Source: Candidatus Omnitrophota bacterium (GTDB lineage Bacteria > Omnitrophota > Gorgyraeia > Zapsychrales > Zapsychraceae). Taken from it: a stretch of 64,000 bases of DNA. Every line of letters starts with the position of its first letter. Position 1 is the first letter of the stretch. A model generated the notes under the pieces. It worked only from the letters and a program-made list of their open reading frames with translations. It was not told the origin of the DNA and searched no databases. Made by a program: the position numbers and the translations under genes. Positions 9,033 to 22,574 of this stretch are shown here, one piece after another. The stretch lies in contig DATDQB010000010.1 of the NCBI GenBank assembly GCA_035292445.1, positions 67,563-131,562 of the forward strand, given 5' to 3'.

Positions 9033-10426
9033 TGATAGGTTTTCTTATACGCTTCAGCTGAATCCTTCCATGGAAACCGCGATTTAAAGGCGTTGGCGAT
9101 GGCGTGTTCTAATTTGTCTTTATGCTTATACAGTTCACACGCACGGCGAACCGCCTTTAAAAACCCTTTTGTAGAATGTTGTGAAAAAACGATACCATTA
9201 CCCGTTTTGAAAGATTTATCGACCGGAACAACCGTATCCGCCAACCCGCCGGTCTCAAAAACAACCGGGACCGTTCCATAGTTCAAAGCGATCATCTGGC
9301 TTAAACCGCAAGGCTCATATGTCGAGGGCATCAAAAAGAAATCCCCGGCGGCATAAACCTGATGGGCCAGCACCTCGTCGAAATCAACGCAGACAGCCAA
9401 GCGGTCCTTGTGGCCTTGGGCCAGCGCCTTCAATTGCTCCTCGTAACGATGATCGCCAACCCCCTGGATCAAGATTTGAAGATCTTCTTTCATCAAATCC
9501 TTCATAACATCGATCATAAGATCGACCCCCTTTTGATGGGAAAGCCGCCCCACGCTGGCAAATAAAGGCGTGTTTTCTTTGACCGGCAACCCCAGCCGCT
9601 GTTGAAGCACGGATTTGTTGACCGCTTTCCCGTGCCCATAATTTCCCTTCCCATAGGTCTTGGCGATAAAACGGTCTTTGGCCGGGTCCCAAGTGTCATA
9701 ATCGATGCCGTTAAGAATACCGACAAGCTTACGGGATCTTTTCTTTAAGATCGCCTCCAACCCGCAGCCGAACTTTTTTGTCTGGATTTCTTTGGCATAG
9801 CGCGGGCTGACAGTGCTGATCCTATCGGCGTAGACGATGCCCGCTTTTAGAAAATTTCCTTTCCCGTGAAATTCAAAAACATCCGATGAAAATAGATCCT
9901 CTTTCAAACCCAACCAGGCAAACTTTTCTTTGTGGAAATGCCCCTGGTAAGCCAGATTATGGATCGTCAAAAGGGATTTTGTCTTTTTAAAGAACGGGTC
10001 TTTCTGATATTTCTCCTTTAAATAAACCGGTATGAGCGCCGCGTGCCAATCATGCGCGTGAATTATATCCGCCGGATGCCCCAAGGTTTTAAGCGCCTCG
10101 AAAACCTGGATATTGAAATGGTGGAACCGCTCAAGATTATCATGATACTCGCTGTGGCGGTCCCCATAGATTCCGTGGCGGTGGAAATAGGCCGTGCTTT
10201 CGATAAAATAAACGTCCACGCTTTGGCCGAGCTTCGTATGCGAAAGATGCGCGTTAACTTTCCTGATATTGAATTTCTCCCGCTCGATGCAGCCGTAGCC
10301 GGGTATGAATACATCCAGCTTTACGCCGATCTTCTCAAGCGCCAACGGCAGCGTCCCACAAACATCGCCCAGTCCGCCGGTCTTGGCAAAAGGGGCTACT
10401 TCCGCTGAGCAAAAGGCCACTCTCAT
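9014..10426 (-). CDS. glgA: glycogen synthase (ADP-glucose type, GT5)
   Basis: 470 aa. N-terminal KTGGLGDV motif and GT-B fold pattern. Confidence 0.88.
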   Translation of the reverse strand: MRVAFCSAEVAPFAKTGGLGDVCGTLPLALEKIGVKLDVFIPGYGCIEREKFNIRKVNAHLSHTKLGQSVDVYFIESTAYFHRHGIYGDRHSEYHDNLERFHHFNIQVFEALKTLGHPADIIHAHDWHAALIPVYLKEKYQKDPFFKKTKSLLTIHNLAYQGHFHKEKFAWLGLKEDLFSSDVFEFHGKGNFLKAGIVYADRISTVSPRYAKEIQTKKFGCGLEAILKKRSRKLVGILNGIDYDTWDPAKDRFIAKTYGKGNYGHGKAVNKSVLQQRLGLPVKENTPLFASVGRLSHQKGVDLMIDVMKDLMKEDLQILIQGVGDHRYEEQLKALAQGHKDRLAVCVDFDEVLAHQVYAAGDFFLMPSTYEPCGLSQMIALNYGTVPVVFETGGLADTVVPVDKSFKTGNGIVFSQHSTKGFLKAVRRACELYKHKDKLEHAIANAFKSRFPWKDSAEAYKKTYQCLLSD

Positions 10427-18716: not shown

Positions 18717-19886
18717 TTATAAATTTGCCTTTACCGGTAGGGAACGGGCATGCCCGTTCCCTACGTTGAATAATTCCGATTTATAATTTTCCAAAAATTC
18801 ATTTTGAAACGCTTCATAACGATCCGCCTCGATCGCCGCGCGGATTTCCCGCATTAAATTAACATAAAACAGCACGTTATGGTACGAAATTAAATGCAGT
18901 GCCGTAATCTCGTTCTGGTTCAACAAATGGCGGATGTAGGCCCGGGTATATTTCTTGCAGCAAATACCTTCGCAGGTAGGGTCGATAGGGGTAAAATCGT
19001 TGGTGAATGTGGCGTTGTTAAGGTTTATTTTTCCTGCTTTGGTAAAAGCCGCGCCGTGGCGACCGTAACGTGTCGGGATACAGGTGTCGAACATATCGAT
19101 GCCCATGCCGACGGCCTTGACGATCTGGTCCGGCAAGCCAATGCCCATAAAGTAACGCGGCTTATCCGAAGGCAGATGCGGCATGAGCCAATCAAGCGTT
19201 TCGAACATGTCCTTGACCGGCTCGCCCACGCTCACCCCGCCGATGGCGTAACCGTCAAAACCGATATCAAGGATCTCTTTGACCGACTGCAACCTTAAGT
19301 CCTCATAGGTTGCGCCCTGGATAATACCAAAGAGCGATTGCTTAAACCTGGAAGGATGTTTCTTGAAATAATCTTTGCAGCGCTTGGCCCACTTTGTCGT
19401 GCGTTCGACGGCCTTTTGCGCTTTCTTGCGTTCACAGGGATAAGGCGCGCATTCATCCAGGCACATGATCATATCCGCTCCCAGGGTTTGCTCGATTTTA
19501 ATGACGTCTTCGGGAGTGAGAAAATGCAGCGAGCCGTCAATGTGCGAGCGGAATTTGACGCCTTCATCGGTAAGCTTGCGGAATTTGGTCAAGCTGAATA
19601 TCTGGTAGCCGCCGCTGTCTGTTAAGATTGGAAGCTCCCAGTTCATAAACCTATGGAGCCCGCCCGCCGCTTCAATGACCTCCATCCCCGGGCGAAGGTA
19701 TAAATGGTACGCGTTGGAAAGAACGATCTGCGAATTAACCGCACGCAAATCCTCAAAGGTCAACGACTTGACCGTCGCGTTGGTGCCCACGGGCATGAAA
19801 AACGGCGTTTGGACCTCGCCGTGAGCGGTTGCCATCACCCCGCGGCGGGCATTTGTTTTTTGATCTTTCTTTATTAACGTGAACAT
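18717..19886 (-). CDS. tgt: queuine tRNA-ribosyltransferase
   Basis: 389 aa. TPFFMPVGT and the zinc-site CCxxC pattern. The last codons contain a 28-nt perfect palindrome. Confidence 0.95.
   Translation of the reverse strand: MFTLIKKDQKTNARRGVMATAHGEVQTPFFMPVGTNATVKSLTFEDLRAVNSQIVLSNAYHLYLRPGMEVIEAAGGLHRFMNWELPILTDSGGYQIFSLTKFRKLTDEGVKFRSHIDGSLHFLTPEDVIKIEQTLGADMIMCLDECAPYPCERKKAQKAVERTTKWAKRCKDYFKKHPSRFKQSLFGIIQGATYEDLRLQSVKEILDIGFDGYAIGGVSVGEPVKDMFETLDWLMPHLPSDKPRYFMGIGLPDQIVKAVGMGIDMFDTCIPTRYGRHGAAFTKAGKINLNNATFTNDFTPIDPTCEGICCKKYTRAYIRHLLNQNEITALHLISYHNVLFYVNLMREIRAAIEADRYEAFQNEFLENYKSELFNVGNGHARSLPVKANL
18736..18763. repeat. 28-nt perfect palindrome gtagggaacgggcatgcccgttccctac (GTAGGG...CCCTAC family), inside tgt 3' end
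   Basis: Read directly. It encodes the tgt C-terminal GNGHARSLP and shares 10-nt half-sites with the palindrome at 20891-20916. Confidence 0.85.
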
Positions 19887-19893
19887 TTATTCC

Positions 19894-20466
19894 TTATTCA
19901 CTTACATCCTCGGCCGCGGTTTCAGTTTCCTCGGATTTTTCTTCAGGAGTTTCTTCAAGAATTTCATCAGAAGTTCCTTCAAGATTTTCTTCAAGAGCTG
20001 CTTCGGGAGCTTCTACCAAGGCTTCTTCCGCGGGCTGCGCTGGTTCGACCGTCGGCTCAACAACTTGCTCTACAGCCGGCTCAACAGTTGGCTCAACGGC
20101 TGGCTCAACAACTTGCTCATCACTTAGAACGATTGTCCCTTCCACATCGGCCTGTGTTTCGGCAGCAACGGGTTCTTCCACAATGATGGGTTCAACCAAA
20201 GCAGGCTCAGTGACGCTGGCAGCCGGTTCTATAAGCTCAAGGACCGGGGCTGAAGGCTCTTCAACCGGTGCTGCTTCTCCAACATAAGAAATCTCATCCG
20301 TCCTGTAGGTATGGTTGACCCCTCCCACATCAAGGGTGACGAACCCATCAGTCTTGGCCACCAACTTTCCCTCAAGCCGCCGGCCGTTTTTCAATATCAT
20401 TACTTCACCGAAAGCTTGCTGGACGAACAAACCAAGAAAAATAACCATCAATAACCCTTTTCTCAT
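19894..20466 (-). CDS. secreted acidic repeat protein (hypothetical)
   Basis: 190 aa. N-terminal signal/TM, a small beta-rich domain, then VEPxVEP and E/P/V-rich repeats encoded by imperfect ggctcaac tandem DNA repeats. AAGGAG RBS 6 nt upstream. Eight nt upstream of tgt. Confidence 0.6.
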   Translation of the reverse strand: MRKGLLMVIFLGLFVQQAFGEVMILKNGRRLEGKLVAKTDGFVTLDVGGVNHTYRTDEISYVGEAAPVEEPSAPVLELIEPAASVTEPALVEPIIVEEPVAAETQADVEGTIVLSDEQVVEPAVEPTVEPAVEQVVEPTVEPAQPAEEALVEAPEAALEENLEGTSDEILEETPEEKSEETETAAEDVSE

Positions 20467-20539
20467 ATGAACTCCTTTTTATTTTTAATGATTTCACTAA
20501 CATCATTTCCGTATGTGTCCCAAGGACTTCTTAGTATAT

Positions 20540-20581
20540 AAAATTAAAACAAAAAAAGCCAAAGGAATTAATTCCTTTGGC
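20540..20581 (-). terminator. intrinsic terminator downstream of the tRNA
   Basis: Perfect palindrome gccaaaggaattaattcctttggc (20558-20581), followed on the minus strand by a UUUUUUUGUUUU run. Confidence 0.6.
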
Positions 20582-20596
20582 TTTTTCCGTCGTCTA

Positions 20597-20650
20597 ACGG
20601 GCCTGACTAACGGAATTGGATAAAGCTCCTATCTGCTGATATAAATATCG
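20597..20650 (+). other. degenerate inverted partial copy of the adjacent tRNA (acceptor/D/anticodon-arm half)
   Basis: gggcctgactaacggaattggataaAGCTCCTATCTGCTgat aligns with tRNA positions ~1-40. There is a 14-nt exact match agctcctatctgct in opposite orientation to the intact tRNA. A second shorter copy (cctatctgc acggttg) sits at 20701-20726. Confidence 0.6.
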
Positions 20651-20737
20651 CACGCCCCCTTAATTTTGTCAAGCAGAGATTAAAACGAGAGTGCGCTTTA
20701 CCTATCTGCACGGTTGACCTGCGCATTCTCTATATAA

Positions 20738-20810
20738 CGGCCCCAGCGGGAATTGAACCCGCAACCACCTATTTAGCAGATAGGAGCTCCATCCATTGAG
20801 CTATGGGGCC
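20738..20810 (-). tRNA. class-I tRNA with anticodon GCU and tRNA-Arg(UCU)-like identity features (isotype ambiguous: Arg-like body, Ser AGY anticodon)
   Basis: 73-nt cloverleaf folded by hand: 7-bp acceptor GGCCCCA/UGGGGCC, discriminator G73, D-arm GCUC-AAUGGAUG-GAGC with A20, anticodon stem CCUAU/AUAGG, loop CUGCUAA (U33, G34-C35-U36), 5-nt variable loop, T-arm GCGGG-UUCAAUU-CCCGC. No CCA is encoded. There is no long variable arm, so it is not a canonical tRNA-Ser. Confidence 0.8.
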
Positions 20811-20831
20811 GCTATATTAATTCTTATTGCA

Positions 20832-20883
20832 ATCAAAAAACAAAAAAATCCCCCACAAAATCGAGCATGATTTCATGGGGGAT
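20832..20883 (-). terminator. intrinsic terminator upstream of the tRNA / downstream of the GIY-YIG gene
   Basis: Stem auccccca/ugggggau (20848-20855 and 20876-20883), followed on the minus strand by UUUUUUUGUUUUUUG. Confidence 0.55.
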
Positions 20884-20890
20884 ATAAATG

Positions 20891-20916
20891 TAGGGAACGG
20901 TCGCGACCGTTCCCTA
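20891..20916. repeat. 26-nt perfect palindrome tagggaacggtcgcgaccgttcccta
   Basis: Read directly. Half-sites TAGGGAACGG and CCGTTCCCTA are identical to those of the palindrome at the tgt 3' end. Confidence 0.85.
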
Positions 20917-20947
20917 TCGAAAATTAAAACCGTTGGGGGCGGTGATT

Positions 20948-20976
20948 ATATTAAATAAACTTGATTACCCTGTCAA
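20948..20976 (-). promoter_or_regulatory. sigma70-like promoter candidate (TTGACA - 17 nt - TAATAT) on minus strand
   Basis: On the minus strand: TTGACAgggtaatcaagtttattTAATATaatcacc. A consensus -35 with a 17-nt spacer. It points toward the palindrome, terminator and tRNA. Confidence 0.35.
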
Positions 20977-21043
20977 CAGAATTAATTCGGGTTACGTCGT
21001 GTGTCCCTTTCTATTTCCTTCTATTTTTCCCGTTGTTCCTTTT

Positions 21044-21517
21044 TTATTCCGAATTATATTTTGGATTCAACAAATCAATTAATATAGCCTCAATGATTCT
21101 TGCTTTCCTTACCGTTTCTATTTCAACAGTCTTTACATAACACTCATTCAAGAAATAATCACGTAATTTATCAATATTTGCAGAAAACTTGTCCTCTTTT
21201 AGTAATTTTTTTGAAAAAGTGTGATGAATGTTTTCTAAATCTGTTGTATTGCAAACTAAATCACCTAAACGATAATTTAAGGTATGTCCGCCTTTACCGG
21301 CATGTCCAACATACAAAAGCTTTCCTCCTTTTTCATAAATCGCATAAATCCCAGGTGAACGAAGAATATCTGTCCTTGCCCTCCAATTGGACTTAATAAT
21401 TTCTTTAAAGCTTTGGTAAGGTGCGTTTTCAAAATCCTGAACTTTATCTTTAATAAATTTTTGAATGTTCTCTGAATTATTCATTGCGTTCTGTTCTGGG
21501 ATCTGTTCCAGGGACAT
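21044..21517 (-). CDS. standalone GIY-YIG (UvrC N-terminal-like / URI domain) nuclease with ~45-aa N-terminal extension
   Basis: 157 aa. GIYAIY...(10)...YVGHA...LNYRL...E..EAILIDLLNPKYN matches the GIY-YIG/UvrC-N pattern. The gene is markedly AT-rich (about one-third GC by eye) against a mid-GC background. It starts 5 nt after the queA stop. Confidence 0.75.
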   Translation of the reverse strand: MSLEQIPEQNAMNNSENIQKFIKDKVQDFENAPYQSFKEIIKSNWRARTDILRSPGIYAIYEKGGKLLYVGHAGKGGHTLNYRLGDLVCNTTDLENIHHTFSKKLLKEDKFSANIDKLRDYFLNECYVKTVEIETVRKARIIEAILIDLLNPKYNSE

Positions 21518-21521
21518 GTGC

Positions 21522-22574
21522 CTAAATAATCAACATCCCATCCCCATAACTGTAAAACCGGTACTTCTTTTCGATCGCCTCCCTGTATACTTTCATAATC
21601 AGATCATGGCCCGCGAAGGCGCTTACGAGCATAAGCAGCGTACTGTAGGGAAAATGGAAATTCGTGATCAGGCAATCGACCATTTTAAAGGAATAGCCGG
21701 GATAAATGAATAAATTTGTATTACCCTGAAGGGGACACGTCAAATGCTTCGCATTTGAGTGCTGCTCGCTTCGCTCGCTGCAGTCCCCGGCAACCGTTTC
21801 CAATACCCGGCAGGCAGTCGTACCGACCGCAATCACAGGATGTCCTTGTGTTTTCGCCTGCTGAATCGATTCATACGATTTCTTTGACACCTCATATTCT
21901 TCATGATGCATGCGATGGCGCGTGATGTCTTCTTCCTCAACGGGTTTGAAGGTCCCATAATTGACATGCAAGGTGACATTCAACACCGTATGCCCCTGCC
22001 GCTTAAGCTGCGCAAGGAGCCCCTTGGTAAAATGCAACCCGGCCGTGGGGGAAGCGACCGAACCATCTTTTTTCGCGTAAACGGTCTGGTAATCCGTGCG
22101 ATCCGACGCCTGATCAGGTCTTCGGATATACGGCGGAAGCGGCATGTGGCCGAATTTCCTCAAAAAAGGTTTGATGATTTTCTTATTGAAGCGCACCAGG
22201 CGATTTTCTTTGTCTTTGATCTGGGCGATGAGACTTCCTCCATTAAAATAGATCGGTTCATTGACCTGCAATTTTTTCAAAGGCTTGATCAGCGTTTCAT
22301 AGGTATAGCCGTCAGCCAATCTCTTCAGTAAAAAGATCTCCACCTGCCCGCCTGTTTCGCGTTTTCCGAATAATCGCGCGGGGATGACCTTGCTGTCATT
22401 GACGACCAGGCAGCTTGCGGGCGGTAAATAGCGGCCGATGTTGGCGAACACATCATGCGTTATTTGTCGCGTTGCCCGGTCGATCACCAAAAGTTTGGCA
22501 TCTTCCCTTTTCTTCAAAGGAAATTGCGCGATCAGATCCGGCGGCAACGCGTATCCGAAATCTTCACGTTTCAT
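21522..22574 (-). CDS. queA: S-adenosylmethionine:tRNA ribosyltransferase-isomerase
   Basis: 350 aa. MKREDFGYALPPDLIAQFP start and conserved QueA core. Confidence 0.95.
   Translation of the reverse strand: MKREDFGYALPPDLIAQFPLKKREDAKLLVIDRATRQITHDVFANIGRYLPPASCLVVNDSKVIPARLFGKRETGGQVEIFLLKRLADGYTYETLIKPLKKLQVNEPIYFNGGSLIAQIKDKENRLVRFNKKIIKPFLRKFGHMPLPPYIRRPDQASDRTDYQTVYAKKDGSVASPTAGLHFTKGLLAQLKRQGHTVLNVTLHVNYGTFKPVEEEDITRHRMHHEEYEVSKKSYESIQQAKTQGHPVIAVGTTACRVLETVAGDCSERSEQHSNAKHLTCPLQGNTNLFIYPGYSFKMVDCLITNFHFPYSTLLMLVSAFAGHDLIMKVYREAIEKKYRFYSYGDGMLII

Follow-up and report, generated by a model that had tools for sequence, protein, structure and literature searches.

What lies between queA and tgt in contig DATDQB010000010.1 of Candidatus Omnitrophota bacterium (assembly GCA_035292445.1), and how did it come to separate two genes that normally sit together? 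We analysed a stretch of 64,000 nucleotides (nt) of this contig, in the following simply called the window, in which the two genes are 1635 nt apart and enclose an acidic-protein gene, a tRNA and an AT-rich open reading frame (ORF). A preliminary description of this DNA had proposed that the ORF encodes a standalone GIY-YIG nuclease brought in from elsewhere. On a narrow balance of probability, we favour the reading that the gene arrived by horizontal transfer and that its product is a solitary GIY-YIG DNA endonuclease, catalytically competent and of the mobilome or defence type, and not a classical homing endonuclease. The gene and its two conserved flanks are arranged as follows.

21044..21517, minus strand: solitary GIY-YIG nuclease gene, 157 amino acids (aa), ATG start, low GC
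21518..21521, minus strand: spacer from the queA stop codon (TAG) to the nuclease ATG, 4 nt, without Shine-Dalgarno motif
21522..22574, minus strand: queA, upstream flank of the insert, native composition (Pfam Queuosine_synth, 5e-128)
18717..19886, minus strand: tgt, downstream flank of the insert, native composition (Pfam TGT, 1.9e-156)

Identity and predicted fold of the nuclease

Compared as a single sequence, the protein matches the Pfam GIY-YIG model (PF01541) over residues 55-155 with 18.8 bits (E 0.0021), the gathering threshold being 22.6 bits, and no other Pfam domain was found in it. Its match to the uvrC model TIGR00194 covers model positions 7-31 only. Searches of NCBIfam, PADLOC and PHROGs with the window protein gave nothing significant, PHROGs contributing one match at E 0.12. 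While a word-indexed protein search recovered only the nuclease gene itself, an exhaustive HMMER search (phmmer) of 1.84 billion representatives found 43 cluster representatives at E<=1e-3, including 15 at E<=1e-10. Most of these proteins measure 140-180 aa, their alignments start near residue 15 and reach the end, and the identity of the window protein to its homologues is 43-50%.

To describe the family, an alignment of 25 members (A1) was used. Invariant in A1 are G71, R83, H99 and E143, and conserved in at least 90% of the members are G56, Y58, Y69, K104, L105, A139, P152 and N155. The motif residues of the window protein, G56-I-Y58, Y69-V-G71, R83, H99, E143 and N155, make up the complete GIY...YIG...R...H...E...N signature. 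R83, E143 and N155 align to R39, E76 and N88 of UvrC, and H99, judged by its position, would be the counterpart of Y43 in UvrC and of H40 in I-TevI. The ORF has neither frameshift nor internal stop, is full length compared with its homologues and keeps every invariant residue. With all catalytic residues present, the suspected ‘remnant’ is not supported. The protein ends in N155-S-E, two residues past the Asn, with nothing beyond the core.

The A1 profile, compared with PDB sequences, matches UvrC-N at 4.1e-9 and Eco29kI at 0.34, and with T4 endonuclease II (EndoII) it aligns along the entire core (4.9e-4). In the case of the individual members, Pfam GIY-YIG is matched by 9 of the 25 (E<=0.01) and TIGR00194 by 11, the best at 7e-11. 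Weak matches were also seen to Pfam RE_Eco29kI (2/25, the window protein not among them), to the group I intron endonuclease model TIGR01453 (3/25) and, in PADLOC, to REase_II (4/25) and UzuA (2/25, E 0.005). As judged from these comparisons, the family is rare and so far unnamed: no library tried gives it a family assignment of its own, and its Pfam and NCBIfam matches are either under threshold or at the superfamily level of GIY-YIG/UvrC.

The structure was predicted with AlphaFold2 (AF2). Without an alignment, the predicted local distance difference test score (pLDDT) was 35, and a usable model was obtained only with the family alignment, which gave one compact domain with a pLDDT of 93.5 and a predicted template modelling score (pTM) of 0.86. 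In this model the N-terminus forms a 24-residue helix (residues 8-31), joined by a short connector to the core, and the core runs through strands 56-62 and 66-73, the helices bearing R83 and H99/K104, strand 126-132 and the helix bearing E143. Foldseek against the PDB matched the model to UvrC-N with probability 1.0 (template modelling score, TM, to the target 0.67-0.74). R.Eco29kI was matched with probability 1.0 as well, with more of the query covered (TM to the query 0.54 over about 172 alignment columns), and against viral predicted structures only generic matches to phage GIY-YIG proteins were obtained (probability 1.0).

Altogether, the family profile and the AF2 fold establish the GIY-YIG identity at the level of family and predicted fold, despite the sub-threshold Pfam score. 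The earlier assignment of residues ~55-155 to the GIY-YIG domain is therefore correct in its span, while the single sequence stays under the Pfam threshold and the identity rests on family profile and structure. Likewise borne out was the proposal that this is a standalone GIY-YIG nuclease resembling UvrC-N, with the first 50 aa or so forming a distinct segment. This segment, which had been thought unique and whose structure had been proposed as a check, is conserved across the family and modelled as the long helix 8-31 ahead of the core.

Base composition and the insertion between queA and tgt

The preliminary description had judged by eye that the gene has a much lower GC content than its neighbours, and windowed GC, third-position GC (GC3) and codon adaptation all agree with this. 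The baseline was the window's set of 59 ORFs with a length of 100 aa or more. The GC content of the nuclease gene is 0.321, compared with an ORF mean of 0.490 (standard deviation, sd, 0.032; z = -5.3), and its GC3 is 0.272, compared with a mean of 0.588 (sd 0.067; z = -4.7), which makes it the sole compositional outlier among the 59. It also has the lowest codon-adaptation-like score of these ORFs, 0.628 with a median of 0.744. In 474-nt windows the GC minimum of the whole 64 kb is at 21012-21485 (0.306), and in 1-kb windows it is at 20476-21475 (0.361). Thus, the low-GC block has the queA stop as one boundary and the start of the acidic-protein gene as the other. A second-lowest GC patch of the window, at positions 1-474 (0.346), is apparently non-coding and adjoins a 203-aa ORF at 588-1199.

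Because its GC3 is unameliorated, the composition argues for a recent acquisition of the gene from a low-GC donor. Taken together, we hold the nuclease identity and the foreign origin of the gene with high confidence.

The acidic secreted protein gene, the tRNA and the AT-rich gene that had been reported between queA and tgt were all located by their coordinates. Besides the nuclease gene, the insert includes the following elements.

19894..20466, minus strand: acidic 190-aa protein with signal peptide
20737..20811, minus strand: tRNA with anticodon GCT (ARAGORN; Rfam tRNA, 68.3 bits)
20470..21521: low-GC segment of about 1.05 kb, with the nuclease gene, two structured non-coding units and the tRNA

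The acidic protein is rich in E, V, P and A, and a Pfam search with it gave no match. Its gene has a native GC content (0.50), a GC3 of 0.42 (z -2.5) and the second-lowest codon-adaptation-like score (0.631).

The nuclease gene directly follows the queA stop, as had been described, with a gap that measures 4 nt (21518-21521) and not 5 nt. The span of 20820-21520 originally given for the insertion does enclose the nuclease ORF but also takes in about 224 nt of non-coding DNA downstream of it. Given the 4-nt gap and the missing Shine-Dalgarno motif, we infer that co-transcription and translational coupling with queA are plausible. An alternative start at M12, which would widen the gap to 37 nt, is a possible start as well, because the family alignments begin at about residues 13-20. 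Public assemblies call the gene only as a 90-aa fragment at 21044-21316 on the minus strand (10001-10273 in loci L001 and L002). This call uses a TTG start (L68) behind an internal AAAGGAGG and loses the GIY motif, and the precomputed Pfam field of the fragment is empty. As to the surroundings, all but one of the 59 non-overlapping ORFs that reach 100 aa are encoded on the minus strand (58 of 59; the exception is probably spurious), and the 64 kb read as a single co-oriented block of housekeeping genes.

Relatives of the locus were found through a QueA protein search followed by contig look-ups. Four Omnitrophota contigs keep the synteny scpA-ruvB-(DUF2905)-spoIID-(ssb)-queA-tgt-trmD-rplS-rnhB-UPF0102, and their queA-tgt gaps measure 48, 287, -4 and 53 nt. 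No tRNA was found in the fetched loci of these four relatives, and the acidic-protein gene is missing at their queA-tgt junction as well; a 190-aa protein encoded in locus L024 was considered as its homologue and rejected, as the two are not homologous. Since queA and tgt are adjacent and without a tRNA in all four syntenic relatives, the whole 1.63-kb insert is lineage-specific. The statement that the two genes normally sit together and are split here was thus confirmed in 4/4 Omnitrophota relatives, and the comparison of the junction, in which the relatives have no nuclease gene at this site, upholds an insertion.

The QueA of the window is 100% identical to one NCBI MAG protein, and the next nearest QueA proteins share only 61-64% identity with it. 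The same locus occurs in two further assemblies with 100% and 99.97% identity over 6 kb, and because they are identical or nearly so, these assemblies add no information. QueA scans of genome and metagenome contigs returned only Verrucomicrobiota-like loci (41-51% identity) and a 1.1-kb piece, stopping short of the junction, from a strain with 98% identity. Inverted repeats of 12 nt and 27 nt around the nuclease gene (I16 and I2) were considered as possible ends of a mobile element and rejected, as they are compatible with chance in AT-rich DNA.

Proposed role, the neighbouring tRNA and alternative explanations

Homologues of the nuclease occur in both bacteria and archaea; one is from a named Aenigmarchaeota, and others are flanked by genes for L31e and eIF-6. 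Their neighbourhoods are variable and different in each case, including a restriction-modification (R-M) system, a PDC-S26 nuclease, an integrase, an insertion sequence (IS) and an AIPR gene. In the case of L017, the homologue lies beside a ThaI-like restriction enzyme with an N6/N4 methyltransferase. This is the only homologue near a methyltransferase, and the ThaI-like enzyme is already the partner of that methyltransferase. The closest homologue with a known context (47% identity; L034 6757-8459 and L035 1689-3421) lies 20 nt downstream of the gene for a PD-(D/E)XK protein (PF14281) of 407-417 aa, which matches the PADLOC candidate PDC-S26 at 3e-92. Both genes have a GC content below that of their contig, and they may be a two-nuclease pair. 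An archaeal islet common to L018 (8001-10318) and L027 (1183-5207) combines the GIY-YIG gene with genes for a 147-aa protein (88% identity) and a 235-aa protein (63%); it adjoins a Phage_integr_3 integrase in one contig set, and an rve transposase, DUF3800 and AIPR in the other. Except for these two related archaeal islets, an all-against-all BLASTP of the neighbours in 7 contexts gave no conserved partner gene. The GC content of the homologue gene is under that of its locus in 6 of 8 contexts.

As a mechanism we propose that the ~1-kb low-GC segment with the nuclease gene entered the tiny gap between queA and tgt in this Omnitrophota lineage, where the gene would be expressed, probably by read-through from the spoIID-queA transcript. 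The protein has the build of its family: a UvrC-like core is preceded by a helical extension, conserved and about 50 residues long, and further residues are inserted between the catalytic Arg and Glu. It would hydrolyse DNA phosphodiester bonds with one metal ion. In this scheme Y58 and Y69 would handle the nucleophile and the phosphate, stabilisation of the transition state would fall to R83 and H99, Mg2+ would be bound by E143, and N155 would have a structural part. As in Eco29kI and EndoII, the helix at the N-terminus probably serves in oligomerisation, in DNA contacts or in both, which would allow two active sites to cut both strands. In function, the protein might be a single-gene restriction-like defence nuclease or a selfish nuclease, and neither a nucleotide-excision-repair enzyme nor a modular homing endonuclease. 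This biological role we put forward tentatively, with somewhat less than even confidence. A defence-type small nuclease effector, one of the options named in the preliminary description, is possible, with some support from the homologue contexts with R-M, PDC-S26, AIPR, integrase and IS.

Several observations weigh against this proposal. The preliminary description had named the absence of a GIY-YIG hit above threshold as evidence against its assignment and, taken literally, a single-sequence Pfam score of 18.8 bits under a threshold of 22.6 is such an absence. None of the PADLOC models matched the window protein at E<=1. There is no methyltransferase or other self-protection partner nearby and no visible means of sparing the host DNA, so that toxicity would be expected of a DNA endonuclease without regulation. 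Here the gene is part of a housekeeping operon and not of a defence island, and the association of the family with defence is anecdotal (about 3 of 7 independent contexts). That the nuclease gene is expressed is something we only infer. With no relative whose QueA exceeds 64% identity, the insertion is not datable. A pattern scan of IMG/VR with a closer sub-alignment (2.9 M viral contigs) and a tblastn search of 50,697 phage records and 72,556 plasmids both gave no family member, and with no viral, phage or plasmid members no vehicle is known.

The low-GC segment also holds the tRNA and, around it, the following candidate elements.

20948..20976, minus strand: promoter-like site TTGACA-17-TAATAT, downstream of the nuclease stop
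20891..20916: perfect 26-nt palindrome TAGGGAACGGTCGCGACCGTTCCCTA, centre TCGCGA, unique in the window
20848..20883, minus strand: terminator-like hairpin followed by a T-run
20644..20672, minus strand: promoter-like site TTGACA-17-GATATT with upstream TG
20617..20637, minus strand: 21-nt segment complementary to tRNA nt 16-36
20548..20591, minus strand: strong terminator hairpin (20 pairs) with T-run, closing the antisense unit

The tRNA is anomalous. Bacterial tRNA-Ser has a long variable arm, whereas this tRNA carries the anticodon GCU and yet has a variable loop of only 5 nt. It has A20, G21, C35, U36 and G73 and no encoded CCA, and its flanks (leader and trailer) lengthen the acceptor helix by 7 bp. 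Its isotype by BLAST is ambiguous: matches came from phage tRNAs for Met, Asn, Arg and Gly (about 75% identity) and none from E. coli. Viral contigs, scanned for exact copies of its anticodon arm, contained none. Recoding of AGY codons, which such a tRNA might signal, was considered and rejected: in alignments with relatives, the AGC and AGT codons of window genes fall on Ser (41% and 63%) in the same way as UCN codons.

The non-coding neighbours of the tRNA are also structured. The stretch 20942-20835, with the palindrome and the terminator-like hairpin, folds far better than shuffled sequences (z -6.0). For the unit 20835-20976, which separates the tRNA from the stop codon of the nuclease gene, three functions are conceivable: leader of the tRNA, small RNA or binding site for a protein. 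On the other side of the tRNA, in the unit 20545-20672, the antisense segment would pair with tRNA nt 16-36, from the D loop to the anticodon, through 19 Watson-Crick and 2 G.U pairs (two mismatches at the DNA level). It starts 137 nt downstream of the matched tRNA-arm sequence, about 100 nt past the tRNA 3' end and on the same strand, and about 7 nt after TTGACA-17-GATATT, i.e. at the would-be transcript start; the fold of this antisense unit has a z of -4.8. On reading the sequence, a shorter copy, GCAGATAGG, was noticed at ~20700-20708. The segment at 20617..20637 could be a recombination relic at the anticodon loop (an inverted tRNA half) or a real antisense RNA.

These elements invite the idea that the low-GC islet is one cassette, in which the nuclease, the anomalous tRNA and the antisense small RNA form a tRNA-based conflict module. 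The tRNA would combine a Ser anticodon (GCU) with a short-variable-arm body that has A20 and G73 as in Arg/Asn tRNAs, and it would be a mistranslating or decoy tRNA held in check by the antisense RNA and travelling with the nuclease. As AGY codons are still read as Ser, such a tRNA would stand outside normal decoding. We consider this idea highly improbable. Nor is an association with tRNA, which had been seen as telling for the nuclease, a trait of the family, since no tRNA was found at any of 19 homologue loci.

Other explanations of the nuclease itself have to be weighed as well. A free-standing homing-type endonuclease, which would have cut empty queA-tgt junctions and entered them during their repair, in the manner of the seg and mob genes found between conserved genes of T4-like phages, would fit the precise insertion in a very short spacer with both conserved genes undamaged, the foreign composition and the weak TIGR01453 matches in 3 of 25 members; T4 SegB, in addition, is located in a tRNA gene cluster. 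However, the protein has no C-terminal DNA-binding domain or linker and is modelled as one compact domain, no group I intron was detected at E<=1 in 19800-21700, and no relatives turned up in the viral or phage collections searched. Moreover, the other family members sit in unrelated contexts and not at conserved junctions, and the insert consists of four separate units instead of one gene. We regard this explanation as unlikely, and the label ‘homing-endonuclease-like’ of the preliminary description is not supported in its classical sense. A domesticated accessory nuclease of the UvrC-N or Cho type, expressed with queA and serving host repair or recombination, seems improbable to the same degree. 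Four syntenic relatives lack the gene at this site, its base composition is extreme and shows no amelioration, and its family, with 43 clusters in a set of 1.84 billion representatives, is very rare and patchily distributed; UvrB-binding, EndoV-like and (HhH)2 domains are lacking as well. These points stand against a closest sequence affinity to the UvrC/Cho GIY-YIG domain, a 4-nt gap to queA that suggests co-expression and an intact ORF with all catalytic residues, as well as the precedent of UvrC-derived ‘Bacillus-II’ proteins with only an N-terminal extension (PMC1564403).

It is rather unlikely, too, that the gene is a silent passenger, i.e. a recent acquisition that is unexpressed or already functionless and plays no role. 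The extreme composition with the lowest codon-adaptation score in the window, the absence of a Shine-Dalgarno motif ahead of the ATG and the 90-aa fragment that alone is annotated by public gene callers would agree with it, but the ORF is intact over its full length with every invariant family residue kept, and it recurs identical or at 99.97% identity over 6 kb in the two further assemblies. Finally, the protein might be the toxin of a module resembling toxin-antitoxin systems, checked by the downstream RNA (unit 20976-20848) or tied to the odd tRNA and its antisense RNA. It is indeed a small solitary nuclease without a protein partner, accompanied in the same low-GC segment by two structured non-coding promoter/terminator units (z -6.0 and -4.8) and by the 21-nt antisense match to the tRNA. 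Nevertheless, no homologue has a tRNA beside it, homologues are followed by spacers of anywhere between 42 and 327 nt, and the counts of promoter-like and terminator-like sites are only a little above the shuffled expectation (6 vs 3.4±1.8 and 4 vs 1.7±1.5). GIY-YIG enzymes are DNA nucleases, and no RNA antitoxin is known for them. We deem a toxin very unlikely.

We thus return to an acquired solitary DNA endonuclease as the preferred reading. Its main value lies in annotation: it defines a rare bacterial and archaeal family of solitary GIY-YIG proteins, and the public 90-aa calls of the window gene lose the GIY motif. If the family proves to consist of single-gene defence nucleases without a methyltransferase, it would raise the question by what means a minimal GIY-YIG enzyme distinguishes self DNA from foreign DNA, and it could offer a compact new nicking or cleavage specificity. 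The locus is also a clean case of gene insertion at a conserved operon junction in the poorly known Omnitrophota. Overall, the nuclease is real but fairly ordinary, and the adjacent tRNA and antisense unit are more unusual and merit an analysis of their own.

Comparison with known GIY-YIG systems

With the GIY-YIG homing enzymes (I-TevI, I-BmoI, Seg), the window protein shares the catalytic domain and the situation of a foreign gene between intact conserved genes. According to PMC3664794, these enzymes are defined by a C-terminal DNA-binding domain and a linker. They measure about 220-270 aa and have two domains, the GIY-YIG domain first and the DNA-binding module (NUMOD, HTH or Zn finger) second, whereas the window protein has the reverse order, with an N-terminal extension, and lacks both a DNA-binding module and an intron. 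Their genes reside in group I introns or stand free in phage genomes, whereas the flanks of the window gene are bacterial housekeeping genes.

The N-terminal GIY-YIG domain of UvrC and Cho (PDB 1YCZ/1YD6; TIGR00194) is the best profile match and has the same fold, with the GIY, YIG, R, Y/H and E motifs and the PKYN ending in common. UvrC, however, is a protein of about 600 aa with UvrB-binding, EndoV-like and (HhH)2 domains that the window protein does not have. In turn, the window protein exceeds UvrC-N by the N-terminal extension (about 50 aa) and by some 40 aa inserted between Arg and Glu.

Single-gene GIY-YIG anti-phage systems exist, namely PD-T4-3, PD-Lambda-1 and Uzume (bioRxiv 10.1101/2024.10.26.620412). 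The concept of a solitary GIY-YIG defence gene is common to them and to our proposal, while the family matches their models weakly or not at all. In the case of T4 endonuclease II (DenA, PDB 2WSH), the likeness lies in a similar size (136-143 aa), a solitary gene and an N-terminal extension with a middle region. The phage uses EndoII to degrade the DNA of its host, which is unmodified, while modified cytosine shields its own DNA (PMC1564403). In contrast, the window gene is chromosomal and has no phage relatives in the collections searched. In R.Eco29kI (PDB 3MX1/3NIC; also Cfr42I and Hpy188I), a small stand-alone enzyme, an N-terminal extension and internal insertions around the GIY-YIG core serve DNA recognition and dimerisation, and the architecture of the window protein is consistent with such a build. 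R.Eco29kI differs by its low identity of 17%, its length (214 aa, compared with 157 aa) and the adjacent methyltransferase that the window gene lacks.

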